The notes beneath the pieces were generated by a model, which worked only from the letters and a program-made list of their open reading frames with translations, was not told where the DNA came from and ran no database searches. Shown here piece by piece: positions 25,595 through 44,083 of a stretch of 64,000 nt of DNA. Within the stretch, counting starts at the first letter, position 1, and every line of letters begins with the position of its first letter. Made by a program: the position numbers and the translations under genes. This DNA is from a virus (Duplodnaviria > Caudoviricetes): positions 21,239 to 85,238 of IMG/VR virus record IMGVR_UViG_3300032270_001445; one strand, written 5' to 3'.

Positions 25595-25680
25595 CAACCC
25601 CCACATTGTGAAAAAAAGGTAGGCGTCCCTAGCGCAGGTGGGGAGGGGGGGTCAAAGGGTACACGCGAGGGGTTAGACCC
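25595..25680. other. C-run / A7 / G-run segment at the operon-array boundary (possible genome end or G4)
   Basis: aacccccacattgtgaaaaaaagg...ggtggggagggggggtcaaagggtacacgcgagggg. Confidence 0.35.
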
Positions 25681-25777
25681 GCCCCTCCGGGGCTATCGGT
25701 CGTCCCAAGATGAGGCACGCTCTCGGCGTATTGTTCTTGTACGGGGGACTTCCCCGCGAAGTACAGAGGAGGCAATC

Positions 25778-26071
25778 ATGGACACGATCGGTACAGCAAT
25801 CAAGGCTCTCTTCGTGGGAGTCATCGCAGCCAATCTTCTCGCGTGGCAGCATCTCGTTCTTGGATTCGATAGCCGTTCTATTCAGATGGTGAACCCGATC
25901 GAGATCATCGTAGCGCTCCTCGCAGGAGTCACGGTGTTCCGAGCATTCTACGCATGGACGCACGATACACTCTTCCCGGCGATGGACAGGGTATTCGAGA
26001 AGATCGACGCAATGCGAGAGAAGCGAAAGGCTCGCGTGACTTGCCCATGCGGCAGGCACCACAGCGTCTAG
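25778..26071 (+). CDS. Cassette 1: two-TM membrane protein
   Basis: GGAGG RBS; two hydrophobic helices; CPCGRHH tail. Confidence 0.7.
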   Translation: MDTIGTAIKALFVGVIAANLLAWQHLVLGFDSRSIQMVNPIEIIVALLAGVTVFRAFYAWTHDTLFPAMDRVFEKIDAMREKRKARVTCPCGRHHSV

Positions 26072-26305
26072 CACAGCACCCCACTCACCGCGCGGCGGTG
26101 GGTGGGGTGTTCCAGTCCTCTTCTCTATCTCTCTCTGTTCGATCTCACACACACCTAAGATAACTAACTAACACTAACTAACGTAACCTGACTAAGGTTC
26201 GATTCGGCGCTCCGCGCCTATCGGTGTCACCTGAACTATCTGTCGCTATGGGGCACTATGGACTCACGGGGCAACCGCTCCGTAATAGTAGCAAGGGGGT
26301 ACGCA

Positions 26306-26560
26306 ATGGTAGGAGCACTAGCAGGGTGGAGCACGCGACACGGCGTCGTGTCGCTCCACTATGATATCCGAAACGGCGGCGGTTTCCCAGACACGCTGAC
26401 GTTCGAGCTCGCACGAGTCAATGGCGAATTGGTCGCCAATATTCACAGCGGCGGCTATGCTGCTGCTAGTGATATCAACCTACGCGGTGCTGCTGCCGAG
26501 CAGCGCCTAGTAGACGCTGGTGTCTGGCTAGACTTCCCAGCGTATCTACGTCGAGCGTAG
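26306..26560 (+). CDS. Cassette 2: hypothetical protein
   Basis: AAGGGGG RBS within repeat. Confidence 0.6.
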   Translation: MVGALAGWSTRHGVVSLHYDIRNGGGFPDTLTFELARVNGELVANIHSGGYAAASDINLRGAAAEQRLVDAGVWLDFPAYLRRA

Positions 26561-26788
26561 TCAGCTCGCACGCTTCACCCCGCTCACCGCAATCGTGCGG
26601 TGGGCGGGGTGTTCGTTCTCTCATCTCTATCTCACTGCGTTCGATCTCGCCTGTCCCTAATATAACTAACCGACTAACTAACGTTCGAGACGCCGCTCCG
26701 CGGCTATCGCTATCACCTGAACTACTCTGCTCTATTCCGTATTCTTTGTATGTGAGGCAACCGCTTCACAATAGTATGGAGGTCTGGT

Positions 26789-27076
26789 ATGTGGCATATC
26801 CCGGAGGAAGGGTGCAGACTCACGGTGAAGGGCGACGTCAATGACGTCATCACCGTGTCCTGCAATCTTGATGGTAAAGCAATGGATTATCATTGCGCCG
26901 TCACGCAGCGTGGTCTCTTGATGATGTTCGTCAAGGATCACGGTCATAGCACCGAGTACTATGATGGTCGCAACGCTGTTGGGATTCTAAAGCAGGACCT
27001 AGTATGGGAAACGCTCCCAGACACGTTCCGCTCAATGGTCAATCTATCGGCGGCATCGCTGACGAAGCGACGCTAG
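26789..27076 (+). CDS. Cassette 3: hypothetical protein
   Basis: GGAGG RBS. Confidence 0.7.
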   Translation: MWHIPEEGCRLTVKGDVNDVITVSCNLDGKAMDYHCAVTQRGLLMMFVKDHGHSTEYYDGRNAVGILKQDLVWETLPDTFRSMVNLSAASLTKRR

Positions 27077-27303
27077 TCCAGCCCCCCGCTCACCGCGAAC
27101 GCGCGGTGGGCGGGGTGGTCAATCTCTACTCTCTATCTCACTCTGTTCGATCTCGGCAGTCCCTAATATAACTAACCGACTAACCATAAGGTTCGAGACG
27201 GCGCTCCGCGCCTATCGCCACCACAATGAATGAACTAGGCGATATGCGATTGTAGGTAGGCGACGGACGCGTCGCGTAAGTAGTCATAGCAGAGGAGGTA
27301 AGT

Positions 27304-27591
27304 ATGAGTAAGCACTACGAGCCGCTTCGGTGGGAGGTGCGTATCGGCGCCGTCCTGAACGAAGCAGATAGCGATAGGGTATCGGACTGCATCGTCAGGA
27401 TGCTGGAAGGTATCCGCAAGTCACGCCCTAGCACTTGGATGGAAGATATCCAAGGCGAGTATGCATATACGCTGCTGAACGATGCACTTCGTCCAGCGGG
27501 GTATTGCACTACCGGACGCAACGAAGAGGACGCGTGGATGATCGGCAAGTTGCCGATGGATAGGTGGTCAGCGAACCTGCTGATCGTCTGA
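27304..27591 (+). CDS. Cassette 4: hypothetical protein
   Basis: AGGAGG RBS. Confidence 0.7.
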   Translation: MSKHYEPLRWEVRIGAVLNEADSDRVSDCIVRMLEGIRKSRPSTWMEDIQGEYAYTLLNDALRPAGYCTTGRNEEDAWMIGKLPMDRWSANLLIV

Positions 27592-27826
27592 TTCTACTTC
27601 CCCCAGTCGCGGACGCGCGGCTGGGGGAGTTAGGTTGTCTCTCTCTATCGAACTATGTTCGATCTCGCAACTCCATAATATAACTAACCGACTAACCATA
27701 AGGTTCGAGACGGCGCTCCGCGCCTATCGGCACAACCTGAACTATCCCTCCCCATTGCGTACTCTTCTTGTAGCGGGACGCCGCCGCGATGAATGCGACA
27801 TCGCAATAGTATCAGCAGGAGGCTAT

Positions 27827-28087
27827 ATGAAGGGTAAAGAGCATCCGGCGTTGATGCCGTTTATCGTCGTGGTCGCACGACTCGTTGAGTACTCTATCCC
27901 GATCGCTGCTGAGACAGCAGAAGCGGCGAAAGATATCGCCGAGAAGATGGTCATGGATGGTCATGCTGATGACTACGCCCATGAGTGCGACATCCAAGAG
28001 GATGACGTTAAAGCGAGTGATCCTAGCGATGCGGAGCGCACCGCGTACAGGTTCTTGAACCGGGAGAACGACGAGCACACGTTCTAG
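27827..28087 (+). CDS. Cassette 5: acidic protein, DpnD/PcfM-like motif
   Basis: AGGAGG RBS; EYSIPIAAETAEAAKDIAE. Confidence 0.65.
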   Translation: MKGKEHPALMPFIVVVARLVEYSIPIAAETAEAAKDIAEKMVMDGHADDYAHECDIQEDDVKASDPSDAERTAYRFLNRENDEHTF

Positions 28088-28331
28088 CAGGTAAATCACC
28101 CCCGCCGCAGCGGACGCGCTGCGGCGGGGGTGGTTAGATCACCTCTCTCTATAGAACTTCGTTCTATCTCGAGACGCCCTAATATAACTAACCACCTAAC
28201 TAAGTTCGACTCGCCGCTCCGCGGCTATCGGTACAACCTGACTAAACTTCGCGGTGGGCGTATTCTTCTTGTAGGGGGGACGCTCCCGCGATGAGTGCGA
28301 CATCGCAATAGCAGTTAGCGAGGAGGCTATC

Positions 28332-28619
28332 GTGAAAATGGTAAAGACAATCGGCGACGCGATCGCGCAGTTGCGCGTTCTAGTCTCCGAAGGCACGGCA
28401 CTATACTCGGAGGCGGTCAGTATCGCTAGCCGATCAGATGTCCTGGTGGACCTATTATCAGGGAGCGACCGCGATGCGATGGTTGCTGCTCGCGATGGTG
28501 CGATAGATCGTGCGGCGCGGGTAGCGATTATCAATCGCGCCAACCAACACTCACTCGCTCAGTTAGAGGCTCAGGCAGCAGTCTACGGACTGGACTGGAC
28601 TGGCTACCAGAGCCAGTAG
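28332..28619 (+). CDS. Cassette 6: helical hypothetical protein
   Basis: AGGAGG RBS. Confidence 0.7.
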   Translation: MKMVKTIGDAIAQLRVLVSEGTALYSEAVSIASRSDVLVDLLSGSDRDAMVAARDGAIDRAARVAIINRANQHSLAQLEAQAAVYGLDWTGYQSQ

Positions 28620-28852
28620 TACCGACCACCCTCGTCGCAGCGGACGCGCTGCGGCGGGGGTGGTTAGATCATCTCTCTCTATAGAGAATGGTTCTATCTC
28701 GCCAGCCCATAAGATAACTAACCTAATAACTAACGTTCGATAGGCCGCTCCGCGTCCATCGCCACCACCCTGAATGAGTATCGCGTTGTGGCATTCTTCA
28801 TATGCGGCGGACGCGCCGTATTGTTGTGGTAGTCATAGAGTAGGAGGCAGTT

Positions 28853-29104
28853 ATGAGTCAGTACGGACTAAAGGCAATCGTTAAGGGTAAGGAGCGAAAG
28901 TTCATCTACGGATTCGATCGGGGTATTCCAGAATACTTCTTGACGGATATCACTGATGGTGATGATCCGCAGTGCATCGTTGGCATGCTCGGAGGCGTGT
29001 ACGGCGATAGGATGAACTTGCACGAGAAGATGAACGAACTCGGTCTATGGAAGATGCTCACTGACGATCAGCGCAGCAGAATCCTGATGGATCTTCCGTT
29101 CTGA
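28853..29104 (+). CDS. Cassette 7: hypothetical protein
   Basis: AGGAGG RBS; YGFDRGIPEYF. Confidence 0.7.
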   Translation: MSQYGLKAIVKGKERKFIYGFDRGIPEYFLTDITDGDDPQCIVGMLGGVYGDRMNLHEKMNELGLWKMLTDDQRSRILMDLPF

Positions 29105-29352
29105 ATTTATCACCCCTGCCACGGCGGACGCGCCGCGGCGGGGGTGGTTAGGTCGTTATTCTCTATAGAACTTTGTTCTATCCCGAAACTTCTCAGGATA
29201 ACTAACTGAATAATAACCACTAACTAAGTTCGACTCGCCGCTCCGCGGCTATCGGCTGAACCTGACTAAACTTTGCGAACCGCCTACTCTTCTTGTAGCG
29301 GGACGCCGCCACACTATCGTTGATGGTGTGAATCGCGATAACAGGAGGCGAA

Positions 29353-29601
29353 ATGGAAGCGTTGATGAAACTATTCGCTATGGCATGGATAGCAGAGAAG
29401 CGTTCATGGGAAAATCTGGAAAGATACGAAAACTTTCTTCTTGATCTGGGCAGGGAGCCAATGACGCACCCGTACTACAAAGGGCTTCTGGACCTTTGGA
29501 GTGAATCGCAAAAGGAGACCAAGAGGATCGGCAAGGAACTCCTCAAAGCGTACAGCGAAACGCAGGGCTCCGAATCGTTCTCGGTTCTCTCCGCGAAGTA
29601 G
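29353..29601 (+). CDS. Cassette 8: hypothetical protein
   Basis: AGGAGG RBS. Confidence 0.7.
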   Translation: MEALMKLFAMAWIAEKRSWENLERYENFLLDLGREPMTHPYYKGLLDLWSESQKETKRIGKELLKAYSETQGSESFSVLSAK

Positions 29602-29845
29602 ACCACAACCCCTCATCGCAGCGGACGCGCTGCGGTGGGGGGTTGGTAGATCGCTTCTCTCTATAGAACTTCGTTCTATCCCGAAGATCCATAAACTAAC
29701 TAACTAACTAACTAACTAACCTGGTTCGACTCGACGCTCCGCGTCTATCGGCCTAACATTACTAAACAACGCCGTACGCCTACTCTTCTTGTATCGGGAC
29801 GCCGACGCGTAATGATTGATTGCGCGAATAGTTTAGCAGGAGGGC

Positions 29846-30103
29846 ATGATGACTCTTGAGAATAGCGTGGTTGATGAGACCACGGAAGAGCAAGAAGATA
29901 CGGGTAGGTTTTGTGCTTGGTGTAAGGTATCTGAGCAGGAGACGGACATTCGTCACTCGTGGGACGACCACGAGGGTAATGATGTCTCTTACTTTGAGAA
30001 GAAGACAATCCTAGACCTTTGTAGGGAATGTTTTTACGAGGGTCACGTAGAGTCTGTTATTGACGACATCAAGAAGATTTACGCAGACCTAGCGAAGGGC
30101 TGA
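29846..30103 (+). CDS. Cassette 9: CxxC..CxxC acidic protein
   Basis: AGGAGG RBS; CAWC, CREC. Confidence 0.7.
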   Translation: MMTLENSVVDETTEEQEDTGRFCAWCKVSEQETDIRHSWDDHEGNDVSYFEKKTILDLCRECFYEGHVESVIDDIKKIYADLAKG

Positions 30104-30330
30104 GAGACCACCACCGTCAACCGCGGACGCGCGGTTGGCGGTGGCGGTTAGTTCGTCTCTCTCTATAGAACTTCGTTCTATCCCGCAGATCCCTAAGATA
30201 ACTAACTAACCTCATAACCATAACGTTCTGCCGGTCGCTCCGCGCCCTTCGGCACAACCTAAACTACCTGAGCGATACCGCGATTATGTATGTGCGGGGA
30301 ACACCTCGCGTAATAGTAAGGAGGTATGAA

Positions 30331-30612
30331 ATGGGAAAGCGGCTAAATCGTAATGGGGTCATTGCGGCGATCGCTCGCCTAGATGATTTCACATCGCATA
30401 CAAAGAGTATGCGTGGCGAGTGGCAGGGAGAGATCTACGTGGTGTATTCGTACAACCAGTGGATTGGTCAGACGGACGGCACGCATTGGAATCTAAACGA
30501 TCAGCGATACAGCGTGACGACATCCCGCCACCAGTCATATCTACGCCGTGCAATCAGCGCGCACGCAATCAACACTCAAGAGAGGGAGATCGGTAAGCTG
30601 CTCTCCAGGTAG
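30331..30612 (+). CDS. Cassette 10: conserved phage protein (YSY...YSxTTSRHQ family)
   Basis: AAGGAGG RBS; motif seen. Confidence 0.7.
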   Translation: MGKRLNRNGVIAAIARLDDFTSHTKSMRGEWQGEIYVVYSYNQWIGQTDGTHWNLNDQRYSVTTSRHQSYLRRAISAHAINTQEREIGKLLSR

Positions 30613-30831
30613 TCAATCCACCCGAGCCGCGAAGTCCTGCGGCTCGGGTGGTTAGGTCTCTTCTCTCTATCTCTCTTTGTTCGATCTCGAGACGCCATAA
30701 GATAACTAACTAACTGAGTTCGACTCGACGCTCCGCGTCTATCGGCCTAACATTACTAAACCAACCATCAAGCGTATTGTTCTTGTAGCGGCGGACGCGC
30801 CGCACAATCCAATAGTAGTAGAGGAGGCTTT

Positions 30832-31134
30832 ATGGGAGAGAAAGTAAAGCGCGTGAAGCGCAAAGCAACGGAGTCGCTTGGAGTGATCACGAAACTCCTC
30901 GCGCGCTCCATTGAGCAGCGTGCAGCAGCGGTTGACGCTGTTGATTTCACGCAAGAGCAGATTGCGATAGTCGCAAGAGCAGAGAAGCCCAGCAAGAGCG
31001 TCGTCAAGAAACTGAACGCTGCGCTTGTTGTTGCCAATAGTGCTCTCGCGTACTATGAAGCAAACGTCAAGGAACTTCAGAAGCGTCAGGCTTCTGCTAT
31101 GAAGGCGATTGAGAAGGCTCAAGCGCAAGAGTAG
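30832..31134 (+). CDS. Cassette 11: coiled-coil protein
   Basis: GAGGAGG RBS; Ala/Lys/Glu helical. Confidence 0.7.
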   Translation: MGEKVKRVKRKATESLGVITKLLARSIEQRAAAVDAVDFTQEQIAIVARAEKPSKSVVKKLNAALVVANSALAYYEANVKELQKRQASAMKAIEKAQAQE

Positions 31135-31357
31135 TATCCCCACCCTCATCGCAGCGGACGCGCTGCGGTGGGGGTGGTTAGATCACCTCTCTCTATAGAA
31201 CTTCGTTCTATCCCGGACCGCCTTAATATAACTAACCACCTAACTAACCAGCGTTCGATTACTCGCTCCGCTCGTATCGCAACAACCTAAACTGACCTGA
31301 CCTAAAGCCTATTCTTTGTATGTGAGGCAACCGCCTCACAATAGTAAGGGGGCTAAA

Positions 31358-31642
31358 ATGGCAGTGAAGCAAGTGCCAGAGAAGGTAGTCAGGGACATTG
31401 TTGAGTTCCAGAGTATCCTTGAAGGATTCATCGCGGCACTCAACAAAGGTAGATACTTCGATCACGATAGCCAACAGGCTGTTAGTGATGTGCTGTACCT
31501 TATGGAGAAGCCTTGGAAGTATAAGTTTGAGATGGCTGAGTGGGAGGTTCTTGGATACCCCGACGCTTACAATCCAGACTATGTTAGCGATCTAGAAATT
31601 GACACCACCGACGCAAAGATCTTTTCTTACTTCAGCCGCTAA
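31358..31642 (+). CDS. Cassette 12: hypothetical protein
   Basis: AAGGGGG RBS. Confidence 0.65.
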   Translation: MAVKQVPEKVVRDIVEFQSILEGFIAALNKGRYFDHDSQQAVSDVLYLMEKPWKYKFEMAEWEVLGYPDAYNPDYVSDLEIDTTDAKIFSYFSR

Positions 31643-31851
31643 CGATTCCCCCCGCTCACCGCGAACGCGCGGTGGGCGGGGTGGTCAATCTCTACTCTCT
31701 ATAGAACAAAGTTCTATCCCGCAGATCCCTAAGATAACTAACTAACGTTCCATAGCTCGCTCCGCTCGCTTCGGCAGAACTCTAACAAACTAACAGGAAC
31801 GCGTATTCTTTAGGTGCGGGGCAACAGCCACGCAATAGTAAGGAGGCTAGT

Positions 31852-32091
31852 ATGTCAATAAAGGAGTTCAGGGTAACGGCAACATACGAGACCACTGTTG
31901 AAGTGGATCAAGATTACGAGTGGCAGGTGTGCGACAAGCACAAGCCAGCCGACGATGAGACACCTGCTCAGTGGGATGTTCGCATGGTAGCGATTGAATC
32001 GTGCAGCGATTGCGACGATAAGGCTTACGATGTCGCTTCTGAAGAGGCTTACGGAAAGTTTCCAAACGCCGACGACATTGACATCTCCTAG
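31852..32091 (+). CDS. Cassette 13: acidic Cys-containing protein
   Basis: AAGGAGG RBS. Confidence 0.7.
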   Translation: MSIKEFRVTATYETTVEVDQDYEWQVCDKHKPADDETPAQWDVRMVAIESCSDCDDKAYDVASEEAYGKFPNADDIDIS

Positions 32092-32315
32092 TCGCTAAGG
32101 AGAACCCCCGCTCACCGCAATCGTGCGGTGGGCGGGGTGTTCGTTTCCTTCCCTCTATAGAACTTCGTTCTATCCCGCAACTCCTTAATCTAACTAACCA
32201 CCTAACTAACGTTCGCACGCTCGCTCCGCTCGCTTCGGCCGAACTCTAACAAACTAACGCGTAGGCGTATTCTTTGGGTGCGGGGATTCCCGTGAAGATC
32301 ATAAGGAGGCTTGAA

Positions 32316-32519
32316 ATGGTTGCGTGCGATCAGTGCGGCACGGAGTTCTTCAACGAGTTTGAGCCGCTCTCAACGATCTGCGAATCGTGCAAGGAAGAAG
32401 AATCCGCAGCGGCGGACGCGTATTGGGAGAAGTATCTTGATTGGGTTGATGATACCCATCATCGCGATAGCGATGACGATACTGACCCGCTTATTCAATA
32501 CGAAGACGGCTGGCGATAA
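32316..32519 (+). CDS. Cassette 14: acidic Zn-finger microprotein
   Basis: AAGGAGG RBS; CDQC...CESC. Confidence 0.7.
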   Translation: MVACDQCGTEFFNEFEPLSTICESCKEEESAAADAYWEKYLDWVDDTHHRDSDDDTDPLIQYEDGWR

Positions 32520-32523
32520 ACGA

Positions 32524-32566
32524 TAAAGCCCCAGATTCCCACGAGGGAGTCTGGGGCTTTATTATT
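32524..32566. terminator. Bidirectional terminator where the two arrays converge
   Basis: taaagccccagattccc-acga-gggagtctggggctttattatt. Confidence 0.8.
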
Positions 32567-32631
32567 GAGTTCCAGTCCTAGCAGCCGCGGCTGCTAGGAG
32601 CCTAACGATAATAGCCCCTAGCAGCCGAGGA

Positions 32632-32910
32632 TTATGCGGAGTAGTAATCCAACTCCATCTTCTCCACGAAGTTATCGTCAACTTCAATCTCGCTATATTC
32701 CACAACGAAGCCTTCCCGCGCCATTGCGGTTATGAACAATGGTGCGTCACAATCTTCTTCAAGGTAGACGCTTCCGTTGCCTTCGTATGAGCAGTTGCTC
32801 ACAACGCTGGCGATACCGAGTTGGCGAAGCATAGCCTTCTCCGCTACGAGGTAGCCGTGCCCTGGCGTATTGAACTTCCGCGTGAAGTAGGTTGCCGAGA
32901 TTCCGAACAT
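32632..32910 (-). CDS. Conserved phage protein (PGHGYL...YLEEDCD family)
   Basis: AAGGAGG RBS; motif seen. Confidence 0.75.
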   Translation of the reverse strand: MFGISATYFTRKFNTPGHGYLVAEKAMLRQLGIASVVSNCSYEGNGSVYLEEDCDAPLFITAMAREGFVVEYSEIEVDDNFVEKMELDYYSA

Positions 32911-33038
32911 TGGTGCCTCCTTGCTTCCCTACGGCAACTGCCGCAACGCAATACTACGCGAACTTCTGGCAGGTTGTCAAGCGTTCCATCCTAAGCCACC
33001 GCGGTGGCTTAGGGCTGAACCCTAAACCACCGCGCTCG

Positions 33039-33368
33039 CTACGCGTTCGCGTTCTCTGTCTGTTGTCGCTCGTTCTCTATTGCTTCGTCGGTGTAGTGCT
33101 TCGCGATCTCCCGCCAATCAACGCGCGAGAGTGAGGCGCCGAGCAAATCGGTCACGAGCCCAACCGCCGCCTCTGGTAGCGTGTTGGTCACTTCCTCCTT
33201 GAGCCACTTGCCCATTTCATAGGCTGCGAAGTTTCCGTCGCTGTCGTTGCTTTCTGCGAACGCACGAGCCTGCTCCTCTACTCCGTGGAGGTCTCCGATG
33301 ATCCCCTCACCGAGCCAGAGATTGACGAGCCATGTCTCGTAGTTGCTCCAGCCGTTGTAGTCTGCCAT
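33039..33368 (-). CDS. Conserved phage protein (YNGWSNYETW family)
   Basis: AAGGAGG RBS; motif seen. Confidence 0.75.
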   Translation of the reverse strand: MADYNGWSNYETWLVNLWLGEGIIGDLHGVEEQARAFAESNDSDGNFAAYEMGKWLKEEVTNTLPEAAVGLVTDLLGASLSRVDWREIAKHYTDEAIENERQQTENANA

Positions 33369-33526
33369 TTTTGCCTCCTTATGACCTAGCGGGAAGCCCC
33401 GCAAGGGAATACTAAACGAACTCCTAGCGAACTGTCAAGCGTTCTATTCCAATGTGCCGCGGCACATTGGAGCCTAACAATAAACCCCGCCGAAGCGGGG
33501 CTTATTGTTTCCGCAGCTGCGAAACT

Positions 33527-33934
33527 TTACGCCATCGGATAGTTGCCCAGTTCTAGAAGCGTCTTGATTTCCGCAACCTGCTCATCGCTGAACGCAAGCG
33601 TCTTGCCGTCCTCGTCCTCTGCGGTGAGTACGCAGTTGCCGTAGATTCCGTCAAACACGCCGCCAAGAATCTCATTGCGCAAAGATGTTGCCGCCTGATT
33701 GCGAATCACAGGCTCGTTGTATAGCCCTTCCTCGTCGCACCAAAGCACCACGCTCGTCGCGCCGTACTTACCAGAAGCCGCAACCTCTACCAGGCTCCAC
33801 TCGCCGACTCGGTAGAGTTCGGTGAGCGTGTTGCCGTCATCGTTGAAGTCCACGACCTCAACCCAGTTGAACAGCGCGGGGACTGGCGTAGCAGTCTCAA
33901 ACTTTCCAACTCCGAACTTGATTGCCTTACCCAT
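33527..33934 (-). CDS. DUF3846-like protein
   Basis: LWCDEEGL...NQAATSL...IYGNCVLT. Confidence 0.65.
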   Translation of the reverse strand: MGKAIKFGVGKFETATPVPALFNWVEVVDFNDDGNTLTELYRVGEWSLVEVAASGKYGATSVVLWCDEEGLYNEPVIRNQAATSLRNEILGGVFDGIYGNCVLTAEDEDGKTLAFSDEQVAEIKTLLELGNYPMA

Positions 33935-34054
33935 TTGCTTGCCTCCTTTGCCTTTCATCGGGAAGCCCCGACCTCTGAATCTTACGCGATAAAGTTCCAG
34001 CCTGTCAAGGGGTTCTATCTCAAATGGTCGCGACCATTTGAGGCTGAACAAAAT

Positions 34055-34292
34055 GATAAGGGTCTGACTGGCACCACACCAACCAGACCCTTATCGGCAT
34101 TTCGCTGCCTTTGACGCTTATCCTCTTGCGAGGAGAGGCTTCACCTTCCGGCTGCCTCTTGCGAACGGCGTAGGTGTCGGTTAGGCACCCCCACCGCTCG
34201 TCCTTATCGTCTCGGGTAGTTAGTCTACAACTACCAACCAGCCGCAGCCCCATAAGCCCGCCACTTTCACAGCGGCACCAGAGCGGCTCGTG
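34055..34292 (-). ncRNA. Candidate structured ncRNA occupying a cassette slot
   Basis: Own promoter and terminal hairpin, no AGGAGG-led ORF, several GNRA-type stem-loops. Confidence 0.45.
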
Positions 34293-34377
34293 TGATGATT
34301 CTAAACGAACATCTGCCAGCCGTCAAGCGTTCTATCCCAAATGGCCGCGGCCATTTGGGGCTGAACAATAATAAGAG

Positions 34378-34590
34378 TTATACGCCGCTTCTTACTGCCT
34401 CGTCTAGTCTTGTCGCCGCTTCCGTAATCGTCGCCAGAACTTCGTCGCCAAAGATTTCCGCGAAGCCCGTAGGCTCGGCGGTATGGTCTGCCGCAAGTTT
34501 CTGGAACCGATAGGCTCCGTCATCTTGCTGGTAATAGCGTGCGAAGGTTGTCGTTGCGCCGTTGGTGTGAATCTGCTTCCACTCCGTCAT
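34378..34590 (-). CDS. Hypothetical protein
   Basis: GGAGG RBS at the end of the upstream gene. Confidence 0.6.
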   Translation of the reverse strand: MTEWKQIHTNGATTTFARYYQQDDGAYRFQKLAADHTAEPTGFAEIFGDEVLATITEAATRLDEAVRSGV

Positions 34591-34591
34591 C

Positions 34592-34876
34592 TTATCCCTC
34601 CACTTCATACTTCTCGCCGCCGATTCGCAGCCCTGTGATTGCGTCAAGCGCGATGGTGCGATAGCCCTCGGCGGTAATGTCGTAGACAAAGATGAGGTCT
34701 TTCGCAGCCGCGTCATACGCAGCCTCGCCGCCTTTGAGGTGCTTCTTGACCCCAAGACGCGCCGTCATCTTTCGCAACTCGCCTGTCGTGCGCTTCACGA
34801 AGTCCACGCCAAAGATCGCGCCGTTGCTTGTGCGGATCATCTCTGCCGCCTCTGCCATCTTGATTACCTTGTTCAT
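34592..34876 (-). CDS. SH3/WYL-like small protein
   Basis: VDFVKRTTGELRKM...VYDITAEGYRTI pattern. Confidence 0.55.
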   Translation of the reverse strand: MNKVIKMAEAAEMIRTSNGAIFGVDFVKRTTGELRKMTARLGVKKHLKGGEAAYDAAAKDLIFVYDITAEGYRTIALDAITGLRIGGEKYEVEG

Positions 34877-35024
34877 TTAAGCCTCCTTACTTCTGTACCT
34901 TTCTGGTACAAGATGATTCTAGAACAGACCTATCCAATCCGTCAAGGGGTTCTAGTCCAAAGGGCCGCCGCCCTTTGGAGGCGAACAAAAATACCGCCCG
35001 AAGGCGGCATCTTTGCTTTCTGGA

Positions 35025-35363
35025 CTACTCGGCTGTCTGAAGCGCGATGATCTTGCTGAACTCCAGTTCAGCGTCGCGCTCGTGCTCAAACGCAACGAAG
35101 TCAATGAATCCATCGTTTCGCCAATGGACAACGATGTTGCCGAACTTGTCGTAAGTCCCATCAAGTTCAGTTGAAATGAAATCGTCTGGGACTGCCAGTC
35201 CGTCCATCACATCGCCGTAGATTTCAGCAAACTTCAGATCGTAGCCTTCAAGACGACTCGCAACCCTTTGCTCAACAAGCCAGTCGCCATCGCAACTTCC
35301 CTGAGAGCACTTGAACTTCGTGAAGTCGCCGTTCGTGAGTGAAACCGCCAGAGCCTTGAACAT
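35025..35363 (-). CDS. Acidic hypothetical protein
   Basis: AGGAGG RBS. Confidence 0.7.
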   Translation of the reverse strand: MFKALAVSLTNGDFTKFKCSQGSCDGDWLVEQRVASRLEGYDLKFAEIYGDVMDGLAVPDDFISTELDGTYDKFGNIVVHWRNDGFIDFVAFEHERDAELEFSKIIALQTAE

Positions 35364-35553
35364 TTTAGCCTCCTCTGTTATCCGCCCAGTTGGGCTATGC
35401 CCATTGTAATCAGTAATCTACTCAGCCGTCAAGAGGTTCTATTCCGAGGAGCCGCCGCTCCTCGGAGACGAACATAATAAAGCGGACTAGTTGGGCTGCG
35501 ACTCAACTAGTCCGCTTGTAGTGGATAGGTGGAGGCTTTCTACCTATCCGTAG

Positions 35554-35826
35554 TCATAGTGCCGCCAAGTACGGCAGGCGGCAGTCGTATCCTAGCAGGC
35601 AACTTGATGGCTCGTGATGGACAGGCTCAACCGCCCACTCAAGGCAAGTCCCGCAAGACTCGCCGCACCAGTTCACTTCGTCCCAGTCAAAGACAGGGTG
35701 AAGTGGATTGCCTTCGCTATCAACAGATTCCTCGTCGTTCAGAGCCGTTCCCCACCTTGCCTCGGAGCAGGGTACGCAATGAACAGCAGCCTCGTATTGC
35801 CACGCGATCGGTGTGTGCTCGCTCAT
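35554..35826 (-). CDS. Cys/His-rich acidic protein
   Basis: AGGAGG RBS; HCVPC, CGTC. Confidence 0.7.
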   Translation of the reverse strand: MSEHTPIAWQYEAAVHCVPCSEARWGTALNDEESVDSEGNPLHPVFDWDEVNWCGESCGTCLEWAVEPVHHEPSSCLLGYDCRLPYLAAL

Positions 35827-36019
35827 CTTTGCCTCCTTGTTTCGTCAGAAGTCCTGACTAAGGGATTGTCGCACAGCCGCAACAGCCTGTCAAATGGTTC
35901 CATCGTAGGTAGCCGCCGCTACCTACGCCCGAACATAATAAACTGCTATGGGCGGGTAAGCACCAGCGCGTAAAGCATAAGCGCGCCGAGCATTATGTAG
36001 AACGCTCCCTGCGCGTCCA

Positions 36020-36283
36020 TTAGATCAAATCCGAAAGCGTTGGGACTGCCTCGTAGCAATCGTCGCAAAGATACTCAATGTTCTCGTGGGCGTTCTCGTA
36101 GCCGTTCCAGCCGTAAGGGAAAGAACGCTTCTTGCCCTCAAATGGGCAACGCTTCTCCAATGAGAGAAACTCCTCGCCGTGGCACTCCTGAACGAGCGGG
36201 TGGTCGTGCGTTTCGCACTCGCATTGATCGTAGTAGCAATCGCCGTTGCCACACATCGTCATTGAGCCTTGTAGGTACGCCAT
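36020..36283 (-). CDS. Cys-rich acidic protein
   Basis: AAGGAGG RBS; LCDDCY. Confidence 0.65.
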   Translation of the reverse strand: MAYLQGSMTMCGNGDCYYDQCECETHDHPLVQECHGEEFLSLEKRCPFEGKKRSFPYGWNGYENAHENIEYLCDDCYEAVPTLSDLI

Positions 36284-36397
36284 TGTCGCCTCCTTATTCG
36301 CAGCCCCAAATCGGGGTAGCCCCATTGTAAATCCATCGCGCCAGATTCGTCAAGCGTTCTAATCCAAGGAGCGGCGGCTCCTTGGAGCTGAACCTAA

Positions 36398-36630
36398 TAA
36401 AGAAGCCTCTTGGAACCCGTCGGTCCCAAGAGGCTTCTTTCGGATTATTCATTGGGGGCTAATCACTTCCCCCAACTCCTTTTCCTTCCGCTCCGCCGAT
36501 CCATTGGCACCTAGCGGTCATCGTCCTTTGCGTCTCGTCTACCCGCGCTTTATTGGTGGCGGCAGACCTGCTCGCTCGTCCACGAGTCTCACCTAGTCGG
36601 AGTTGCTTCATCTAGAATCGCTTCCGACAA
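36398..36630 (-). ncRNA. Second candidate ncRNA cassette (GGA-rich)
   Basis: Promoter TTGACA-18-TAGTAT, strong terminator 36398-36440, only an RBS-less 50-codon ORF. Confidence 0.4.
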
Positions 36631-36772
36631 GACCATACTAAGCGATGATTATACGACCTGTCAAGCCCCTAGTTTCAGTTCTATCCCAAGAGGCCGCCGC
36701 CTCTTGGGGCAGAACATAATAAATAAGCCACCCCCGGCGGGGTGGCTTATTTACTTTGGATTCTGCTCTAAA

Positions 36773-37735
36773 TTACGCGAGGGCGAGAATCGCTTCGCGC
36801 TTTGTCTTGGCTGCGAAGCCCGTATCAAGCATTACGCTTGACGCACGAGCGTCCAGAGCCGTTGATCGCACGCCGCCGCGATACGATACGCCGTGATCTA
36901 GATACTCGGCGATGGCGTTATACACGCCCCACTTCGTATCGCGAAGCCCGTCAAGATTTTCTGCGTTATTGAGAATCGCGAAGGTTGCCTTTGCGCGCTC
37001 CGACATTACTTCCTTCTCTCGCTTCTCCGACTCCGAGAGCGGGAAGATTTTTGAGATGATGCGGAAAGCCTCGCCTCGCTCAATCTTTTCCTTGACCATA
37101 CGCGAGCCGATGAGCGAGAACTCATCAACAGCGGCAGAGGCAAGACCAAGAGCGCGCTTGGCTTCCGATACTTTCTCCTCAATCTTCGCGGTGTGGCGAA
37201 GCGTGAACGACATCTTGGCAGAGCCAAGAGCCGCGTTCAGCGTGTTCATACAAACTACGCGTACGGGCGTGATCATCGCTTTTAGCGGGAACAGCCCGTT
37301 ATGCCCGTTGGCGATCACAAGGTAAGTTGTGGTCGCGCCGTTGTCGCCCTTGATCGCGATCTTTTCTGGAATCTCCAACGCTGCGAAGATCACCTGACCG
37401 CTTTTGAGTGATCCTGCCGTTTCGTATCGTGCGCCCTCATCAAGAAGCGCGTCTGCGAACGACATCATCTCATCGTTCTGGATTGGCGTGTAGCGATCCC
37501 CGACAACGCCGAGAACCTCGCCGTCCGTTGATCGTACATTTGCGCGCTTGCCGTTGATCGCAATCTGCTTGCCGTCAAGCGTAGTGAAGATCGGCTGCTG
37601 CTTTACCGCCCAGTCAAGACCAGCCGCAACGATCATCTCCGCGCTTGTGGTCAAGCCGTTGGTCGCAACGCCAAGCCCATGCCACGGCATACCTCGCTCC
37701 TTGTTGTATGCCATCGTTTCTACCTCGTGTGCCAT
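36773..37735 (-). CDS. DUF932-family protein
   Basis: MAHEVETMAY...PWHGLG...AGLDW...YTPIQN...ETAGSL...TPVRVVCMNTL...LRHT. Confidence 0.85.
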   Translation of the reverse strand: MAHEVETMAYNKERGMPWHGLGVATNGLTTSAEMIVAAGLDWAVKQQPIFTTLDGKQIAINGKRANVRSTDGEVLGVVGDRYTPIQNDEMMSFADALLDEGARYETAGSLKSGQVIFAALEIPEKIAIKGDNGATTTYLVIANGHNGLFPLKAMITPVRVVCMNTLNAALGSAKMSFTLRHTAKIEEKVSEAKRALGLASAAVDEFSLIGSRMVKEKIERGEAFRIISKIFPLSESEKREKEVMSERAKATFAILNNAENLDGLRDTKWGVYNAIAEYLDHGVSYRGGVRSTALDARASSVMLDTGFAAKTKREAILALA

Positions 37736-37859
37736 TTCGTACCTCCTTATTTCCCAACGGCAAGTGCCGCTAGATGGATTGTAAAGTACCGCCGAGATTG
37801 CGTCAAGTTCTACCCCAAAGGGCGGCGGCCCTTTGGGGTCTAACCATAATAAGAGCGAT

Positions 37860-37988
37860 CTACTCTCCGTGCTCGCAGTTCTCTGATTGCTCCAACTCGT
37901 AGCACGCATTATCTCGTGTTGGCGTGTTCACGCACTCGCAGACGACCTCGTTGCGCTCGCAGTCGTCGCACCAAACCATCGTGCTCAC
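37860..37988 (-). CDS. 42-aa Cys-rich microprotein
   Basis: Manual translation (GTG)STMVWCDDCERNEVVCECV...; GTGA overlap. Confidence 0.45.
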   Translation of the reverse strand: MSTMVWCDDCERNEVVCECVNTPTRDNACYELEQSENCEHGE

Positions 37989-38218
37989 AGGACTCCCGTC
38001 CCTTCGCAGCCACAGGCTCCGTCTTGGCACATAGCACCTTCGGCAACAAACATCGCGCAGCCATACTTGTCCGCACGATTCTCCTCGCAGTCAGAGCAGT
38101 ACCACTCGGCGTGCCCACTGGCGTTATTATCTGAACACCACTCGCCCTCTTTGCCGCAGCCGCAAACAAAGATAGTGTTTTGCGGTTCGCCAACAGGAAT
38201 CTCAAAGTGGTCGCTCAT
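37985..38218 (-). CDS. Cys-rich protein
   Basis: CGCG, YCSDC, CQDGACGC. Confidence 0.6.
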   Translation of the reverse strand: MSDHFEIPVGEPQNTIFVCGCGKEGEWCSDNNASGHAEWYCSDCEENRADKYGCAMFVAEGAMCQDGACGCEGTGVL

Positions 38219-38424
38219 TGTGCGACCTCAAAGCCGTCAGCCTGAATCCCGTCAAGAATCTGAGAAGCGAATCGTCGCTCAACGGCAAGCCCCTGACCGA
38301 AGTAGATCGCGTCCTCGCCGATGTTGTCGTCTAGCCAGCGACGAGCCTCGCGTGTTGCGGGAATCAACAGGCAGACCGAGCCGCCGTCTACGAAAGTGAA
38401 GTCCGCGCTCTTGTGCTCACTCAT
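38215..38424 (-). CDS. Conserved small phage protein
   Basis: AAGGAGG RBS; GSVCLLIP...WLDDN...VERRF. Confidence 0.7.
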   Translation of the reverse strand: MSEHKSADFTFVDGGSVCLLIPATREARRWLDDNIGEDAIYFGQGLAVERRFASQILDGIQADGFEVAQ

Positions 38425-38540
38425 ACAGCCTCCTTACTCCTTCGCCCAAGTCGGGCTTACGCAATCTTACAACCTATCTAGTTCTGGTGTCAAGGGTTCT
38501 ATCCCAGATAGCCGCCGCTATCTGGGGACGAACCTAATAA

Positions 38541-38750
38541 TCACTTCTTCCAGTCTTCTGGAACTTCACGCCAAGTTTCGCCGCCATTGTCGCAATCCGA
38601 TGAATAGATGTCGCACTCTTGACACCAGACCACAAAGCAGTCCTCTGCGTGTCCAGAGATTTCACAATCAGACCATAACCAATGCGCGTCCCTCTTGTCC
38701 GTCGGGCAGTCGCAGGGCTTTCGTTCAGATGTAGGGAATAAGCGACTCAC
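38541..38750 (-). CDS. Cys-rich protein
   Basis: GTGA overlap; WCQEC. Confidence 0.55.
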   Translation of the reverse strand: MSRLFPTSERKPCDCPTDKRDAHWLWSDCEISGHAEDCFVVWCQECDIYSSDCDNGGETWREVPEDWKK

Positions 38751-39196
38751 AGGACTTCGCAACCTTTTAGGTCAGCGCATAGCGCAAGGAACTCCTGCCA
38801 CTCTCGGATAAGCCCAAGCCAACTTTTCGCCTCATCGGAGGGGTCAGCCCTGTCTGCGTCAGACGAGTATGTATTCGCCTTGATGAGATCACTCATTATC
38901 ACGATGATCTCATCGTCGCCCATTGAGGCAATCTTTTCGGATAGTTGGCGGCATTGGTAGTTCTTGATCACATCGCCGCTATTGTCCACGAGGCTTTCGT
39001 TCACATCGTCAAGCCCGATGGCTTCGTGGAAATCACGCAACATCGGCATACCCCAAATGTTCAGACGGAAGTAGATCGTATCGGGAGCCTTCTCCGCATA
39101 CGAGCCGTCCTCGTCAATCCACATTGAGCGGTACTTCTTTGCGTGAGCAGCCGCAGCCTCGCGGTCAGGTAGCAGCGAGTAAATGTCGTAGCCCAT
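38747..39196 (-). CDS. Hypothetical protein (MGYD...YFRLNIWGM type)
   Basis: AAGGAGG RBS. Confidence 0.7.
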   Translation of the reverse strand: MGYDIYSLLPDREAAAAHAKKYRSMWIDEDGSYAEKAPDTIYFRLNIWGMPMLRDFHEAIGLDDVNESLVDNSGDVIKNYQCRQLSEKIASMGDDEIIVIMSDLIKANTYSSDADRADPSDEAKSWLGLIREWQEFLALCADLKGCEVL

Positions 39197-39320
39197 TTCA
39201 TACCTCCTTACGCCTCACTCCAAGCGGAGCCTCATCATTGTAAGACCGCGCTAGTTATTCTGTCAAGGGGTTCTATCCCAAGAGGCGGCGGCCTCTTGGG
39301 GCAGAACTAATTAACCTTGC

Positions 39321-39794
39321 TTAGTAGATTTGGTTGGTTGTGTATCCGCACGCCATACAGACGGGCGCAGAGCAGCCCTCTGGGTTTTCGCCCGTGTCTA
39401 CGCCTTCATCTGGGTCGCACACGCCACACGGAGCATAATCAACATCTCGGCACAGGCACTCACTAACTGAATCTCGCGGTATGTCGTTGTAGTGTCGGTG
39501 CCAGTTTGCTTCATCTTCTCGCGTTAGCGCGCTGATCAAGCACTCTGGATTAAAGCACCAGCCGTTATCTCGCGCCTCCTTATCCGACATAAGTGGCGGG
39601 TGAAACTCACACTCGCAAGGAGCGCAGTCCAAGCAGAATACTAAGTAGCCTTCTGGCACGCCCTTCTCGTACTGATCAAAGTCAAGAACATCAAACCGCG
39701 TGTTCGGCTCGCCGTTCCAAGTCCCGATGACCTTCTCGTCTGCGTAGAAGATCGGAGCCGAGCAACGCGTACAAGCGTGAAGTTCACCGCTCAT
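39321..39794 (-). CDS. Multi-CxxC protein
   Basis: CTRC, CLDC, CGVC, CMAC. Confidence 0.65.
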   Translation of the reverse strand: MSGELHACTRCSAPIFYADEKVIGTWNGEPNTRFDVLDFDQYEKGVPEGYLVFCLDCAPCECEFHPPLMSDKEARDNGWCFNPECLISALTREDEANWHRHYNDIPRDSVSECLCRDVDYAPCGVCDPDEGVDTGENPEGCSAPVCMACGYTTNQIY

Positions 39795-39960
39795 CTGTAA
39801 TCTCCTCCGTGCTCCATACGATTGTTTCTGGGGTCGTGTCCCACGGCGCAGGTTCCTCGGAAGCAGTCCACGCCTTCTGCTCTGCCTCCTGCTTGCTATC
39901 GGCTTCTACCTCAAACTCCCGATAGCCTGTGTTCTGTAATACAACAATCCACTTACTCAT
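39784..39960 (-). CDS. DpnD/PcfM-like small protein
   Basis: YREFEVEADSKQEAEQKA. Confidence 0.6.
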   Translation of the reverse strand: MSKWIVVLQNTGYREFEVEADSKQEAEQKAWTASEEPAPWDTTPETIVWSTEEITDER

Positions 39961-40264
39961 TTTCGTCCTCGTCATCTGCGCCCTGCTCAATGAGGGAAAT
40001 GAATCCGTCATTAGGGTTTGCGTGATTCGTGCGAACTGCCTGAACGAAGCGCAAGCCGCAAGAGTCCGCGTACCAGTCCTGAATCGTTGCGAGCATTTCG
40101 CTTGGCGTGAGATCATCTGCGGATAGAAGCGGGTCGTATCCGTACTCCTTCATCTGAGCCATCTGCTCATCGTCCATCAAGACATAAATCTTGTGGCATT
40201 GGTCAAAGCCGATTCCCTTTGCCATCTCAACCGCAACCTCTACCTTGTCCCAACTAGCAGCCAT
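39953..40264 (-). CDS. Hypothetical protein
   Basis: AAGGAGG RBS; FDQCHKIYVLMD...SCGLRF. Confidence 0.7.
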   Translation of the reverse strand: MAASWDKVEVAVEMAKGIGFDQCHKIYVLMDDEQMAQMKEYGYDPLLSADDLTPSEMLATIQDWYADSCGLRFVQAVRTNHANPNDGFISLIEQGADDEDENE

Positions 40265-40427
40265 CACAACCTCCTTATTTCCCAACGGCAAGTGCCGTCT
40301 AGTGGATTGTCCCATACCCGCGTACCAGCCGTCAAGCGTTCTATCCCAAGTAGCGGCGGCTACTTGGGGACGAACCTAATAAATAAGCCGCCCCCGAAGG
40401 GACGGCTTATTTGCATGCGACTAACGA

Positions 40428-40970: not shown

Positions 40971-40979
40971 AGAGCCTCC

Positions 40980-41207: not shown

Positions 41208-41402
41208 TTCCTACCTCCTTACTCGTTATCGGGAAGTCCCGATAGATGGATTTTCTCACAGGTACTAGCGACCTGTCAAGCGTTCTATCCCTCATGGCCG
41301 CCGCCATGAGGGGGCGAACCTAATAAATAAGCCCCGCCGTTTCCAGCAGGGCTTATCTACACTTGGGCTGGGCGCTGTGATTGTACCCAGCCCAGAATCT
41401 AA

Positions 41403-44071: not shown

Positions 44072-44083
44072 TTAGGAGGTTGT

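Follow-up and report, generated by a model that had tools for sequence, protein, structure and literature searches.

A phage clade without a recognisable RNA polymerase has PeSL-like gene cassettes that carry N4-type template-strand mini-hairpins

In coliphage N4, mini-vRNAP (vRNAP, virion RNA polymerase) contacts bases -8G, -9C, -10G and -11G of the promoter hairpin, in which -10G and -12A form a sheared pair (PMC4496689). The GCGGAGC hairpin extrudes in vivo in N4 (PMC13037366, PMC4496689). It belongs to the GCGNAGC mini-hairpins, which are extraordinarily stable in DNA (melting temperature of 73 °C for N = G) and of which the N4 promoter is a natural example (PMC13037366). Mini-hairpins of the GCGNAGC type are also present at G4-type origins and at ssiA priming sites (PMC13037366). 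When the N4 P1 hairpin was put between the -35 and -10 elements of an E. coli rrnB promoter, activity became gyrase-dependent (PMC4496689), so hairpin extrusion can gate a host promoter. The GCGGAGC hairpin has so far been the hallmark of one enzyme-promoter pair, that of N4 vRNAP. Here we describe an array of 14 single-gene cassettes, each with a TCC mini-hairpin (H3) that resembles the N4 promoter hairpin on its template strand. The array lies in a 64,000-nt window of a Caudoviricetes genome (bases 21239-85238 of the 85,238-bp IMG/VR virus record IMGVR_UViG_3300032270_001445); positions below are those of the window unless stated otherwise.

Two other systems are relevant. The PeSLs (promoter-early stem-loops) of T4-type phages are composite cassettes that undergo insertion, loss, replacement and duplication among relatives (PMC2839356, PMC4122927). 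The Thermus phage P23-45 has a virion RNA polymerase (RNAP), gp96, which is fused to the tape measure and marked by DFDGD (PMC10770324).

The array and its template-strand mini-hairpin

When the window was searched for TCC-N5-YWTC-G(G/C), 21 matches were observed against 4.8 expected, and none of 100 shuffled sequences reached 21. Fourteen of the 21 matches form a plus-strand series with a spacing of 464-535 bp (25686, 26211, 26697, 27205, 27717, 28218, 28749, 29242, 29738, 30239, 30732, 31267, 31761 and 32225). A profile of the unit found no copy beyond these 14 on either strand of the window, and the whole 85-kb genome contains no unit outside the array. The sequence-only reading of this DNA had described 14 copies of a 5-nt stem, TCC, 5-nt stem, YWTC and G(G/C) with invariant spacing. 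This holds for the 14 copies, but the G(G/C) ending applies to this genome only, the clade having C followed by a purine. The nine perfect stems (versions GCCCC, GGCGC, GCCGC and GACGC) were all found, and the five imperfect copies are those at 28749, 30239, 31267, 31761 and 32225. The array, the terminator at its end and the 14 hairpins are as follows.

25662 to 32560, plus strand: array of 14 single-gene cassettes, genes A-N, encoding proteins of 67-100 aa
32527 to 32565, bidirectional: canonical terminator (stem and T-run) at the junction of the plus-strand array and the converging minus-strand cassettes
25681 to 25693, minus strand: H3 of unit 1, GCCCC-TCC-GGGGC, template core CC-GGA-GG
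26206 to 26218, minus strand: H3 of unit 2, GGCGC-TCC-GCGCC, template core GCGGAGC
26692 to 26704, minus strand: H3 of unit 3, GCCGC-TCC-GCGGC
27200 to 27212, minus strand: H3 of unit 4, GGCGC-TCC-GCGCC
27712 to 27724, minus strand: H3 of unit 5, the representative unit, GGCGC-TCC-GCGCC
28213 to 28225, minus strand: H3 of unit 6, GCCGC-TCC-GCGGC
28744 to 28756, minus strand: H3 of unit 7, GCCGC-TCC-GCGTC, a C.T mismatch on the top strand and A.G on the template strand
29237 to 29249, minus strand: H3 of unit 8, GCCGC-TCC-GCGGC
29733 to 29745, minus strand: H3 of unit 9, GACGC-TCC-GCGTC
30234 to 30246, minus strand: H3 of unit 10, GTCGC-TCC-GCGCC, one pyrimidine-pyrimidine mismatch on the top strand
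30727 to 30739, minus strand: H3 of unit 11, GACGC-TCC-GCGTC
31262 to 31274, minus strand: H3 of unit 12, CTCGC-TCC-GCTCG, two pyrimidine-pyrimidine mismatches on the top strand, tandem G.A/A.G on the template strand, GCGGAGC retained
31756 to 31768, minus strand: H3 of unit 13, CTCGC-TCC-GCTCG
32220 to 32232, minus strand: H3 of unit 14, CTCGC-TCC-GCTCG

Each cassette consists of a conserved intergenic unit of ~230 bp and one small open reading frame (ORF). The array genes are mutually unrelated (forced alignment of the 14 proteins gives 11-31 % identity), and just two of the 14 proteins match a PHROG family. Unit 1 is exceptional, as it has GTTAGA in place of the GTTCGA box and is without H1, H2 and the TAAC tract (see below for these elements).

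The same units were found in relatives. The complete genome G001 (84.6 kb) has 14 full units and a degenerate copy without the TCC hairpin, the complete genome G003 (82.9 kb) has 12 units and the 33-kb fragment G002 has seven; units are also present on at least a dozen short metagenome contigs. This genome and the related viral and metagenome contigs gave 79 distinct units in total, of which 47 are on viral contigs. The units share ancestry, so counts of units are not independent observations.

All H3 copies have a 5-bp stem and a 3-nt loop. Among the 47 units, 92 % of the H3 cells are paired, and both sides of a pair changed in 29 cells compared with 6.9 after shuffling (0 of 500 shuffles reached 29). 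When the partner columns were slid by 1-3 positions, pairing in these units fell to 21-48 %. In the 79 units, 371 of 395 H3 pairs (94 %) are Watson-Crick pairs, although the identity of the outer pairs varies: pair 1 is G-C in 61 units, C-G in 8 and A-T in 7, and pair 2 is G-C in 43, C-G in 16 and A-T in 8. A compensatory double change is seen directly in cassette K, whose protein is 93 % identical between this genome (GACGC/GCGTC) and G001 (GCCGC/GCGGC). Covariation was not observed on inspection for a possible outer helix between GTTCGA and TATCGG.

The remaining 24 H3 pairs are all of types that the template strand can tolerate. On the top strand, 21 are pyrimidine-pyrimidine, three are A.C and none is G-T, so that on the bottom strand the same 24 pairs are purine-purine or G-T; seven variant stem types all point in this one direction. 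Because the mismatch types are strand-asymmetric, and unlike those of the G.U-rich hairpins H1 and H4 of the same unit, H3 must be under selection on the template strand, for which DNA is the simplest form. Nearest-neighbour DNA folding did not separate the strands for perfect stems (-5.6 vs -6.0 kcal/mol). In the case of unit 7, the predicted values were -4.5 kcal/mol for the bottom strand and -2.8 kcal/mol for the top strand. The invariant or near-invariant core of H3 is CGCTCCGCG. On the bottom strand GCGGAGC is found in 13 of the 14 units here and in 69 of the 79 units of the clade, the remainder having CCGGAGG. Outside the array this heptamer is at background level, with 6 top-strand and 8 bottom-strand copies.

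The comparison with N4 was made on its genome sequence (EF056009), where P1 is GTTGC-TTC-GCAAC-TTAT-GG, P2 is AGAAGC-TCC-GCTTCT-TTT-GG and P3 is AAGCTGC-TCC-GCAGCTT-TT-GG. In all three, the first G of GG lies 11 nt past the loop centre. The N4 resemblance proposed from the sequence alone, including the 11-nt distance from loop centre to purine, thus has the same geometry in the N4 record and an identical heptamer in P2 and P3, and the P2 sequence that it gave was correct (AGAAGC-TCC-GCTTCT in the N4 record, with the +1 G 11 nt from the loop centre). In addition, all bases contacted by mini-vRNAP are present in the H3 template strand.

Anatomy of the unit and putative host-type promoter elements

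Unit 5 was taken as the representative unit. Its order after the stop codon is H1, the H2 box, a variable TAAC-repeat tract, GTTCGA, 3 nt and H3, followed by YWWC and a purine (R), AAC-CTRAAC, 17 nt, nAYTnT, 7 nt, H4, CAATAGTA, AGGAGG and ATG. Apart from H3 (listed above), the features of unit 5 are given below.

27599 to 27629, plus strand: H1, a long G+C-rich hairpin right after the stop codon, with no T-run behind it
27647 to 27663, no strand assigned: H2, ATCGAAC-TAT-GTTCGAT
27676 to 27701, plus strand: A+T-rich TAAC-repeat tract of variable length
27703 to 27708, plus strand: GTTCGA box, 3 nt ahead of H3
27725 to 27730, plus strand: TATC-GG after H3, with the position of a would-be N4-type start 11 nt from the loop centre
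27734 to 27742, plus strand: AAC-CTGAAC box
27760 to 27765, plus strand: -10-like hexamer TACTCT, 43 nt after the first loop base
27772, plus strand: probable host-RNAP start, 7 nt after the hexamer
27773 to 27787, plus strand: H4, a short hairpin at the 5' end of the predicted mRNA
27804 to 27829, plus strand: CAATAGTA box, AGGAGG Shine-Dalgarno sequence and ATG of gene E

The stretch from GTTCGA to the -10-like hexamer keeps a fixed register: of the 47 viral-contig units, 46 align without an indel and one requires a 1-nt shift. Numbered from the first loop base, the G, T and T of GTTCGA (-14 to -12) are invariant in the 47 units. C at +11 and a purine at +12 are present in 79/79 units (G in 54 and A in 25), while the next base is free; C at +19 is also invariant (79/79). 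The hexamer at +20 to +25, located 17 bp before the -10-like element, matches TTGACA at 3-4 of 6 positions. The -10-like hexamer has the clade consensus nAYTnT (A+44 in 78/79, T+46 in 75/79 and T+48 in 78/79). A TG at promoter positions -15/-14 was found in 38 of the 45 units with a C-initial hexamer and in none of the 19 with a T-initial hexamer. Since TG accompanies C-initial hexamers and never T-initial ones, this is the pattern of an extended -10 promoter. Further downstream, +54 is a pyrimidine in 75 of the 79 units and +55 is a purine in 78.

H4 is a sense-RNA structure. It has 53 G.U pairs on the sense strand and 18 on the antisense strand (-12.4 vs -9.9 kcal/mol), and in 29 of 46 units its first stable pair falls within +53 to +56. 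Because H4 starts at the pyrimidine-purine step, the mRNA would begin with a terminal hairpin. H1, with a stem of 14-17 bp, shows the same bias (mean fold of -39.4 kcal/mol for sense vs -33.9 for antisense; 84 vs 35 G.U pairs) and is a sense-RNA structure too, probably an attenuator or a 3' stabiliser.

The other boxes are less uniform. The H2 hairpin is formed in half the units; in six units it has the version ATAGAAC-TTC-GTTCTAT. It is not kept in the G003 lineage, where the box GTTCGA(T/G)CTCG alone is conserved. The sequence TAACTAAC is found in 26 copies on the plus strand, all inside the array, and in none on the minus strand. We also observed 15 plus-strand copies of GTTCTATCC (window 29175-45130) and none on the minus strand; its sites are the H2 boxes of the plus-strand array, positions antisense to the minus-strand cassettes, and 45096 and 45130 beside a tRNA-Ile gene. 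In two relatives, the units L059 13941 and L058 13554 have the full regulatory frame, but a simple rule finds no ORF with a strong Shine-Dalgarno sequence behind them; both have a weaker AAGGTAGG site ahead of an ATG.

A second cassette family is present ahead of nearly every minus-strand gene at window ~32900-42400. These cassettes (at least 12) consist of TTGAC(A/G), 17-18 nt, nAnnAT, 7 nt, a short hairpin and a Shine-Dalgarno sequence. Their upstream part often has a canonical T-run terminator, followed by TTATTAG, GTTC, N3, a palindrome, N3 and GAAC. The palindrome is a perfect 10-bp inverted repeat of variable sequence with a 4-nt centre. When 12 units were folded, the 120 palindrome pairs contained no wobble and no mismatch, which suggests a cruciform at the DNA level over an RNA structure. 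As this family has the same downstream layout behind canonical -35 and -10 elements, the layout belongs to host-type promoters. In both families the A+T-rich tract and the -35 position are separated by an inverted repeat that could extrude; compared with the minus-strand family, the plus-strand array has a weak -35-like hexamer, and a small N4-type hairpin instead of the long palindrome. One stem, CGGCAGTTGCCG, occurs both in a minus-strand cassette and in plus-array units of relatives. DUF932 and DUF1281_C (Api92-like) proteins are encoded among the minus-strand cassettes (window 36773-37906 and 41403-42236, minus strand).

The reading that we favour, at roughly an even chance, is that the units are PeSL-like terminator-promoter cassettes read by host RNAP, with an extrudable N4-type hairpin as an upstream module. 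A host sigma promoter had been offered by the sequence-only reading as the alternative to its polymerase proposal, and it became the better supported of the two, as the -10-like hexamer, the TG, the pyrimidine-purine step and the 5' RNA hairpin all keep their conserved spacing. A host sigma70-type RNAP would start near +55, from nAYTnT, with TG in many units and the weak -35-like CTRAAC, and the mRNA would open with H4 as a protective 5' hairpin. H3 would then be centred near -54 relative to this start, between the GTTCGA box with the A+T-rich tract and the weak -35. Extrusion of H3 from negatively supercoiled DNA may occur as it does for the same heptamer in N4, which would make H3 an upstream switch or a landing site. 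As a switch, extrusion would take 13 bp off the helix axis, so that the A+T-rich tract and the GTTCGA box would both shift and turn with respect to the core promoter. Alternatively, the extruded H3 may bind a protein, of the phage or of the host, that offsets the poor -35. Each unit would insulate and drive one small orphan gene, and its conserved sequence would let recombination gain, lose, duplicate and reorder cassettes. The invariance of C+11, C+19 and GTT suggests that some protein reads the sequence as well as the shape.

Several observations count against this interpretation. A generic sigma70 scan called promoters in none of the 14 units, and the -35-like hexamer is poor. Eight of the 79 units (CTCGC/GCTCG) are unfolded under the standard nearest-neighbour DNA parameters, which may miss sheared G.A pairs. 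The invariant C+11 and the purine at +12, which lie at the site of a would-be N4-type start, would have no role in this model. H1 is without the T-run of the minus-strand terminators, which could hint at a different polymerase for the plus-strand array. To our knowledge, no GCGGAGC hairpin has so far been described that serves a host promoter as an upstream element. Two other host-type arrangements were considered and rejected. In the case of a -35 TTCGAC and -10 TATCGG promoter with a start at +12, the final T of the -10 is missing and relatives have TAACGA. An ECF-type (extracytoplasmic function) promoter has the wrong spacing, and no sigma gene was found.

Genome setting, polymerase search and rival explanations

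The ends of the record share a 117-bp overlap. Since the two complete relatives start at different, non-homologous points, the record is a circular assembly. PHROG and Pfam matches identified an HK97-type head module (portal, S78 protease with a ferritin/Dps fusion, major head protein and adaptor). The genome also encodes a large terminase (TerL) and an Ig-domain tail-tube candidate with two small chaperone-like ORFs. Behind these lie the genes for a 3493-aa tape measure and for a 2417-aa fibre that has an S74 chaperone. TerL shares at most 28 % identity with any cultured phage, which indicates a new siphovirus-like lineage. Other matches over the ORFs include SSB, a DnaC-like loader, MazG, RusA, exonucleases, helix-turn-helix proteins, ParB_N and DUF932.

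The sequence-only reading had suggested a phage-encoded polymerase or activator that reads the hairpins, to be looked for as a T7/N4-like RNAP or another large virion protein in the rest of the genome. No recognisable RNAP or sigma factor was found in the whole genome, and the large virion protein, the 3493-aa ORF, is a tape measure. PF00940 was searched for only in the window's own genome and was not found, in a search whose control gave a signal in 0 of 14 control genomes. PF00623 and Sigma70_r2 were not found in the three complete genomes, with controls giving a signal in 14/14 and 11/14 control genomes, respectively. PHROG and Pfam searches over essentially all called ORFs gave no polymerase, primase, integrase or HUH enzyme match. 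Searches by tblastn and phmmer with N4 vRNAP, N4 RNAPII, gp2, P23-45 gp96 and gp64 gave no match, and the genome contains no DxDGD motif. The only DxDxD sites are at residue 3200 of the tape measure (in its coiled-coil part), in a collagen-like fibre and in two unrelated proteins.

We also analyzed the individual polymerase candidates. The 3493-aa ORF (L009, genome 8796-19277, outside the window) has the size of gp50, the N4 vRNAP, but it matches tape-measure families only, with no PDB sequence match and no BLAST similarity to N4 vRNAP. It is Ala/Gly/Lys-rich with membrane-like segments, and its lone match resembling 'motif B' is an internal repeat. Its TMP_3 domain covers only residues 1738-1843. 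The N-terminal ~1650 aa are an extension without assigned function that is conserved in eight homologues; it is Ala/Lys/Gly-rich, with few aromatics and without a cluster of invariant acidic residues. An AlphaFold2 single-sequence model of residues 1-1200 was mostly helical or coil and, with a mean pLDDT of 42, too poor for use. All eight homologues are 3474-3498 aa long, which would be expected of a ruler and implies a tail of roughly half a micrometre. A tape-measure-fused two-barrel RNAP as in P23-45 was rejected on the present evidence, as there is no gp96 or gp64 similarity, no PF00623 and no DxDGD. The 757-aa ORF with a DSDSD motif is a Ser/Thr/Gly-rich fibre with a collagen-like GAT repeat. 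A T7/SP6-like promoter in the CTATAGAAC box was rejected because no T7-like RNAP was found and the box is not kept in the G003 lineage. A polymerase too divergent to detect may be imagined, though nothing in the sequence points to one.

The rival that survives best, although we consider it unlikely, is that the units are true N4-style promoters. An unrecognised virion or early polymerase, or an undescribed initiation factor, would bind the template hairpin and start 11 nt past the loop centre, and the -10-like hexamer would lie in the leader or serve as a second promoter for later use by the host. The heptamer of P2 and P3, the four contacted bases, the stem and loop sizes and the 11-nt distance from loop centre to the C-purine step are all shared, and selection acts on the template strand. 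H1 is without T-runs, unlike the canonical terminators elsewhere in the genome, and the ~1650-aa extension of the tape measure would offer a place for such an activity; in P23-45 a tape measure is indeed fused to a polymerase (PMC10770324). On the other hand, the domain searches found no PF00940 (own genome only, control 0/14), PF00623 or sigma domain. PHROG and Pfam gave no polymerase, the N4 and P23-45 queries were negative, and there is no DxDGD and no DxDxD in a plausible place. The extension itself is low in aromatics and without an acidic cluster, and the fixed total length of the tape measure is that expected of a ruler. The common register of -10, TG, pyrimidine-purine step and H4 would have to be a coincidence, and N4 has three promoters at its first-injected end compared with the fourteen here. 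If hairpins were nevertheless true starts, hairpin-promoter transcription would be convergent or far wider than the Schitoviridae.

Two further explanations are, in our judgement, quite improbable, and equally so. One is a double-stranded operator, with a sequence-specific activator or repressor that recognises CGC-TCC-GCG together with the flanking GTTCGA and AAC boxes in ordinary duplex DNA; no hairpin would form. Sequence invariance beyond pairing (GTT, CGCTCCGCG, C+11 and C+19) and the class I activator position of the element agree with it, as do the several helix-turn-helix proteins and two ParB_N proteins that the phage encodes. Against it, the three outer stem pairs switch identity but stay complementary, which a protein that binds the duplex would not require; the mismatch types are strand-asymmetric, and the core is a known hairpin-stability sequence. 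The other is a DNA role outside transcription, with the folded template strand as a priming signal or a cassette-recombination site. It would fit the GCGNAGC at G4-type and ssiA sites (PMC13037366) and the arrays reshuffled among relatives, and a folded single strand recalls integron attC. The phage also encodes SSB, RusA and exonucleases. This would leave the indel-free register with promoter elements over 60 nt unexplained, no primase, integrase or HUH enzyme is among the Pfam/PHROG matches, and the shuffling needs no more than ordinary homologous recombination at the 230-bp repeats, as with PeSLs.

It is very unlikely that H3 acts in an antisense RNA, with GC-GGA-GC hairpins as stops or processing sites in minus-strand read-through transcripts. 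The tandem G.A and G.U pairs of the bottom strand are equally typical of RNA, and minus-strand cassettes run towards the array. The two arrays are, however, divided by a strong bidirectional terminator, the hairpin has neither a T-run nor another terminator feature behind it in the antisense direction, and the fixed register is with promoter elements of the sense strand.

Slightly less probable still is a sense-RNA element such as a nut/boxB-like loading or processing site in read-through transcripts between cistrons, which are likely since H1 has no T-run; the GTTCGA box with a 5-bp hairpin loosely recalls boxA/boxB, but none of the 395 sense-strand pairs is G.U, in contrast to the G.U-rich H1 and H4, all sense-strand mismatches are pyrimidine-pyrimidine or A.C (21 + 3), the element lies upstream of each unit's own promoter, and there is no Rfam match.

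Some other features of the genome were noted. The Peptidase_S78 prohead protease and the ferritin/Dps-like domain (residues 225-364) form one 626-aa protein (window 11126-13006, minus strand). The 757-aa Ser/Thr/Gly-rich protein (window 61118-63388, plus strand) has internal repeats and a collagen-like (GAT)n run; this probable fibre adjoins a 594-aa decoration/fibre-like protein. Two tRNA genes are on the minus strand, tRNA-Ile(TAT) at window 45184-45259 and tRNA-Arg(TCT) at window 51525-51600. As they read AUA and AGA, they may hint at a host that rarely uses these codons. A Deltaproteobacteria contig from a metagenome-assembled genome (L201, JAJDAQ010000156.1, 62 kb) has one exact match to the 63-nt unit pattern, which could be due to chance or could be a trace of a related element and a clue to the host. 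Two ParB_N proteins and SSB are encoded elsewhere in the genome than the minus-strand cassettes. The set of DUF932, DUF1281_C, ParB_N and SSB resembles the leading regions of conjugative plasmids.

Cassette shuffling and comparison with known systems

The cassettes are reshuffled among relatives. Their order is ABCDEFGHIJKLMN here, A C E B E - D H G I H J K M in G001 and O P Q D - E H R S T R N in G003, with families E, H and R duplicated. Cassette proteins share 24-93 % identity among relatives and the units stay conserved. Unit variants are lineage-wide (TATCGG here vs TAACGA with TGG-CATTCT in the G003 lineage), which suggests homogenisation among units.

Array and PeSLs thus share several characters. 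Both have a stem-loop (H1 in the present case), an A+T-rich tract, a sigma70-like promoter and a Shine-Dalgarno sequence. In both, small orphan genes are flanked by these units in a hyperplastic region, and relatives differ by whole cassettes. The differences are the phage lineage, the size of the unit (~230 bp with four structured modules vs ~100 bp for a PeSL), the weak -35, and the mini-hairpin, which is distinct from the terminator and lies on the template strand. The array is therefore PeSL-type by function and not by descent, since the phage is siphovirus-like and not a T4-type myovirus.

P23-45 is likewise a long-tailed phage of ~84 kb with a giant tape measure, and in its pre-early transcription units small genes stand in a row, every one having a conserved promoter of its own together with an unusual terminator (PMC10770324). 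Its motif is A+T-rich and has no hairpin, unlike H3, and its tape measure carries DFDGD, while no DxDGD and no gp96 or gp64 similarity were found here. The sites of G4-type origins and ssiA have the same heptamer class and the same use as folded single-stranded DNA. They are, however, single origins of single-stranded replicons read by a primase, compared with 14 promoter-locked copies in a double-stranded DNA phage where no primase was detected. An integron attC site is acted on by the tyrosine recombinase IntI and has RYYYAAC...GTTRRRY core sites. It was rejected as a match because there is no integrase among the Pfam/PHROG matches and GTTRRRY is fitted only by unit 1 (GTTAGAC). No Rfam family matches the unit.

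The comparison with N4 gives a mixed result. Like N4 P1-P3, H3 has a stem within the range of 5-7 bp, a 3-nt loop and a template C-GNA-G, with the GCGGAGC core of P2 and P3, and the loop centre is 11 nt ahead of a pyrimidine-purine step. As in N4, the outer stem bases are free provided that they pair (PMC4496689). Unlike N4, which is a schitovirus, the present virus is a siphovirus with a tape measure, and neither a vRNAP nor another phage RNAP is detectable in it. There are 14 copies, one per gene, compared with three at the first-injected genome end of N4. N4 starts at GG, but the would-be start base here is A in 25 of 79 units and the second base is free. The units also have invariant boxes that N4 does not have (GTTCGA, C+11 and AAC-C+19) and a sigma70-type -10 in fixed register 43 nt downstream.

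The same hairpin, selected on the template strand, is thus found here in 79 units of a clade apparently without the polymerase and in the register of a host-type promoter. If a host promoter is gated by supercoil-driven extrusion of H3, the unit would be a compact natural supercoiling switch and a useful part for synthetic biology. If the hairpin is read directly, it would point to an unknown hairpin-reading protein. Under either reading, the array is a clear non-T4 case in which orphan early genes are shuffled as cassettes; these genes probably form a reservoir of host-takeover or anti-defence functions. In comparison with the known systems, what is new in this phage clade, in which no polymerase is recognisable, is the combination of PeSL-like cassettes with N4-type template-strand mini-hairpins.

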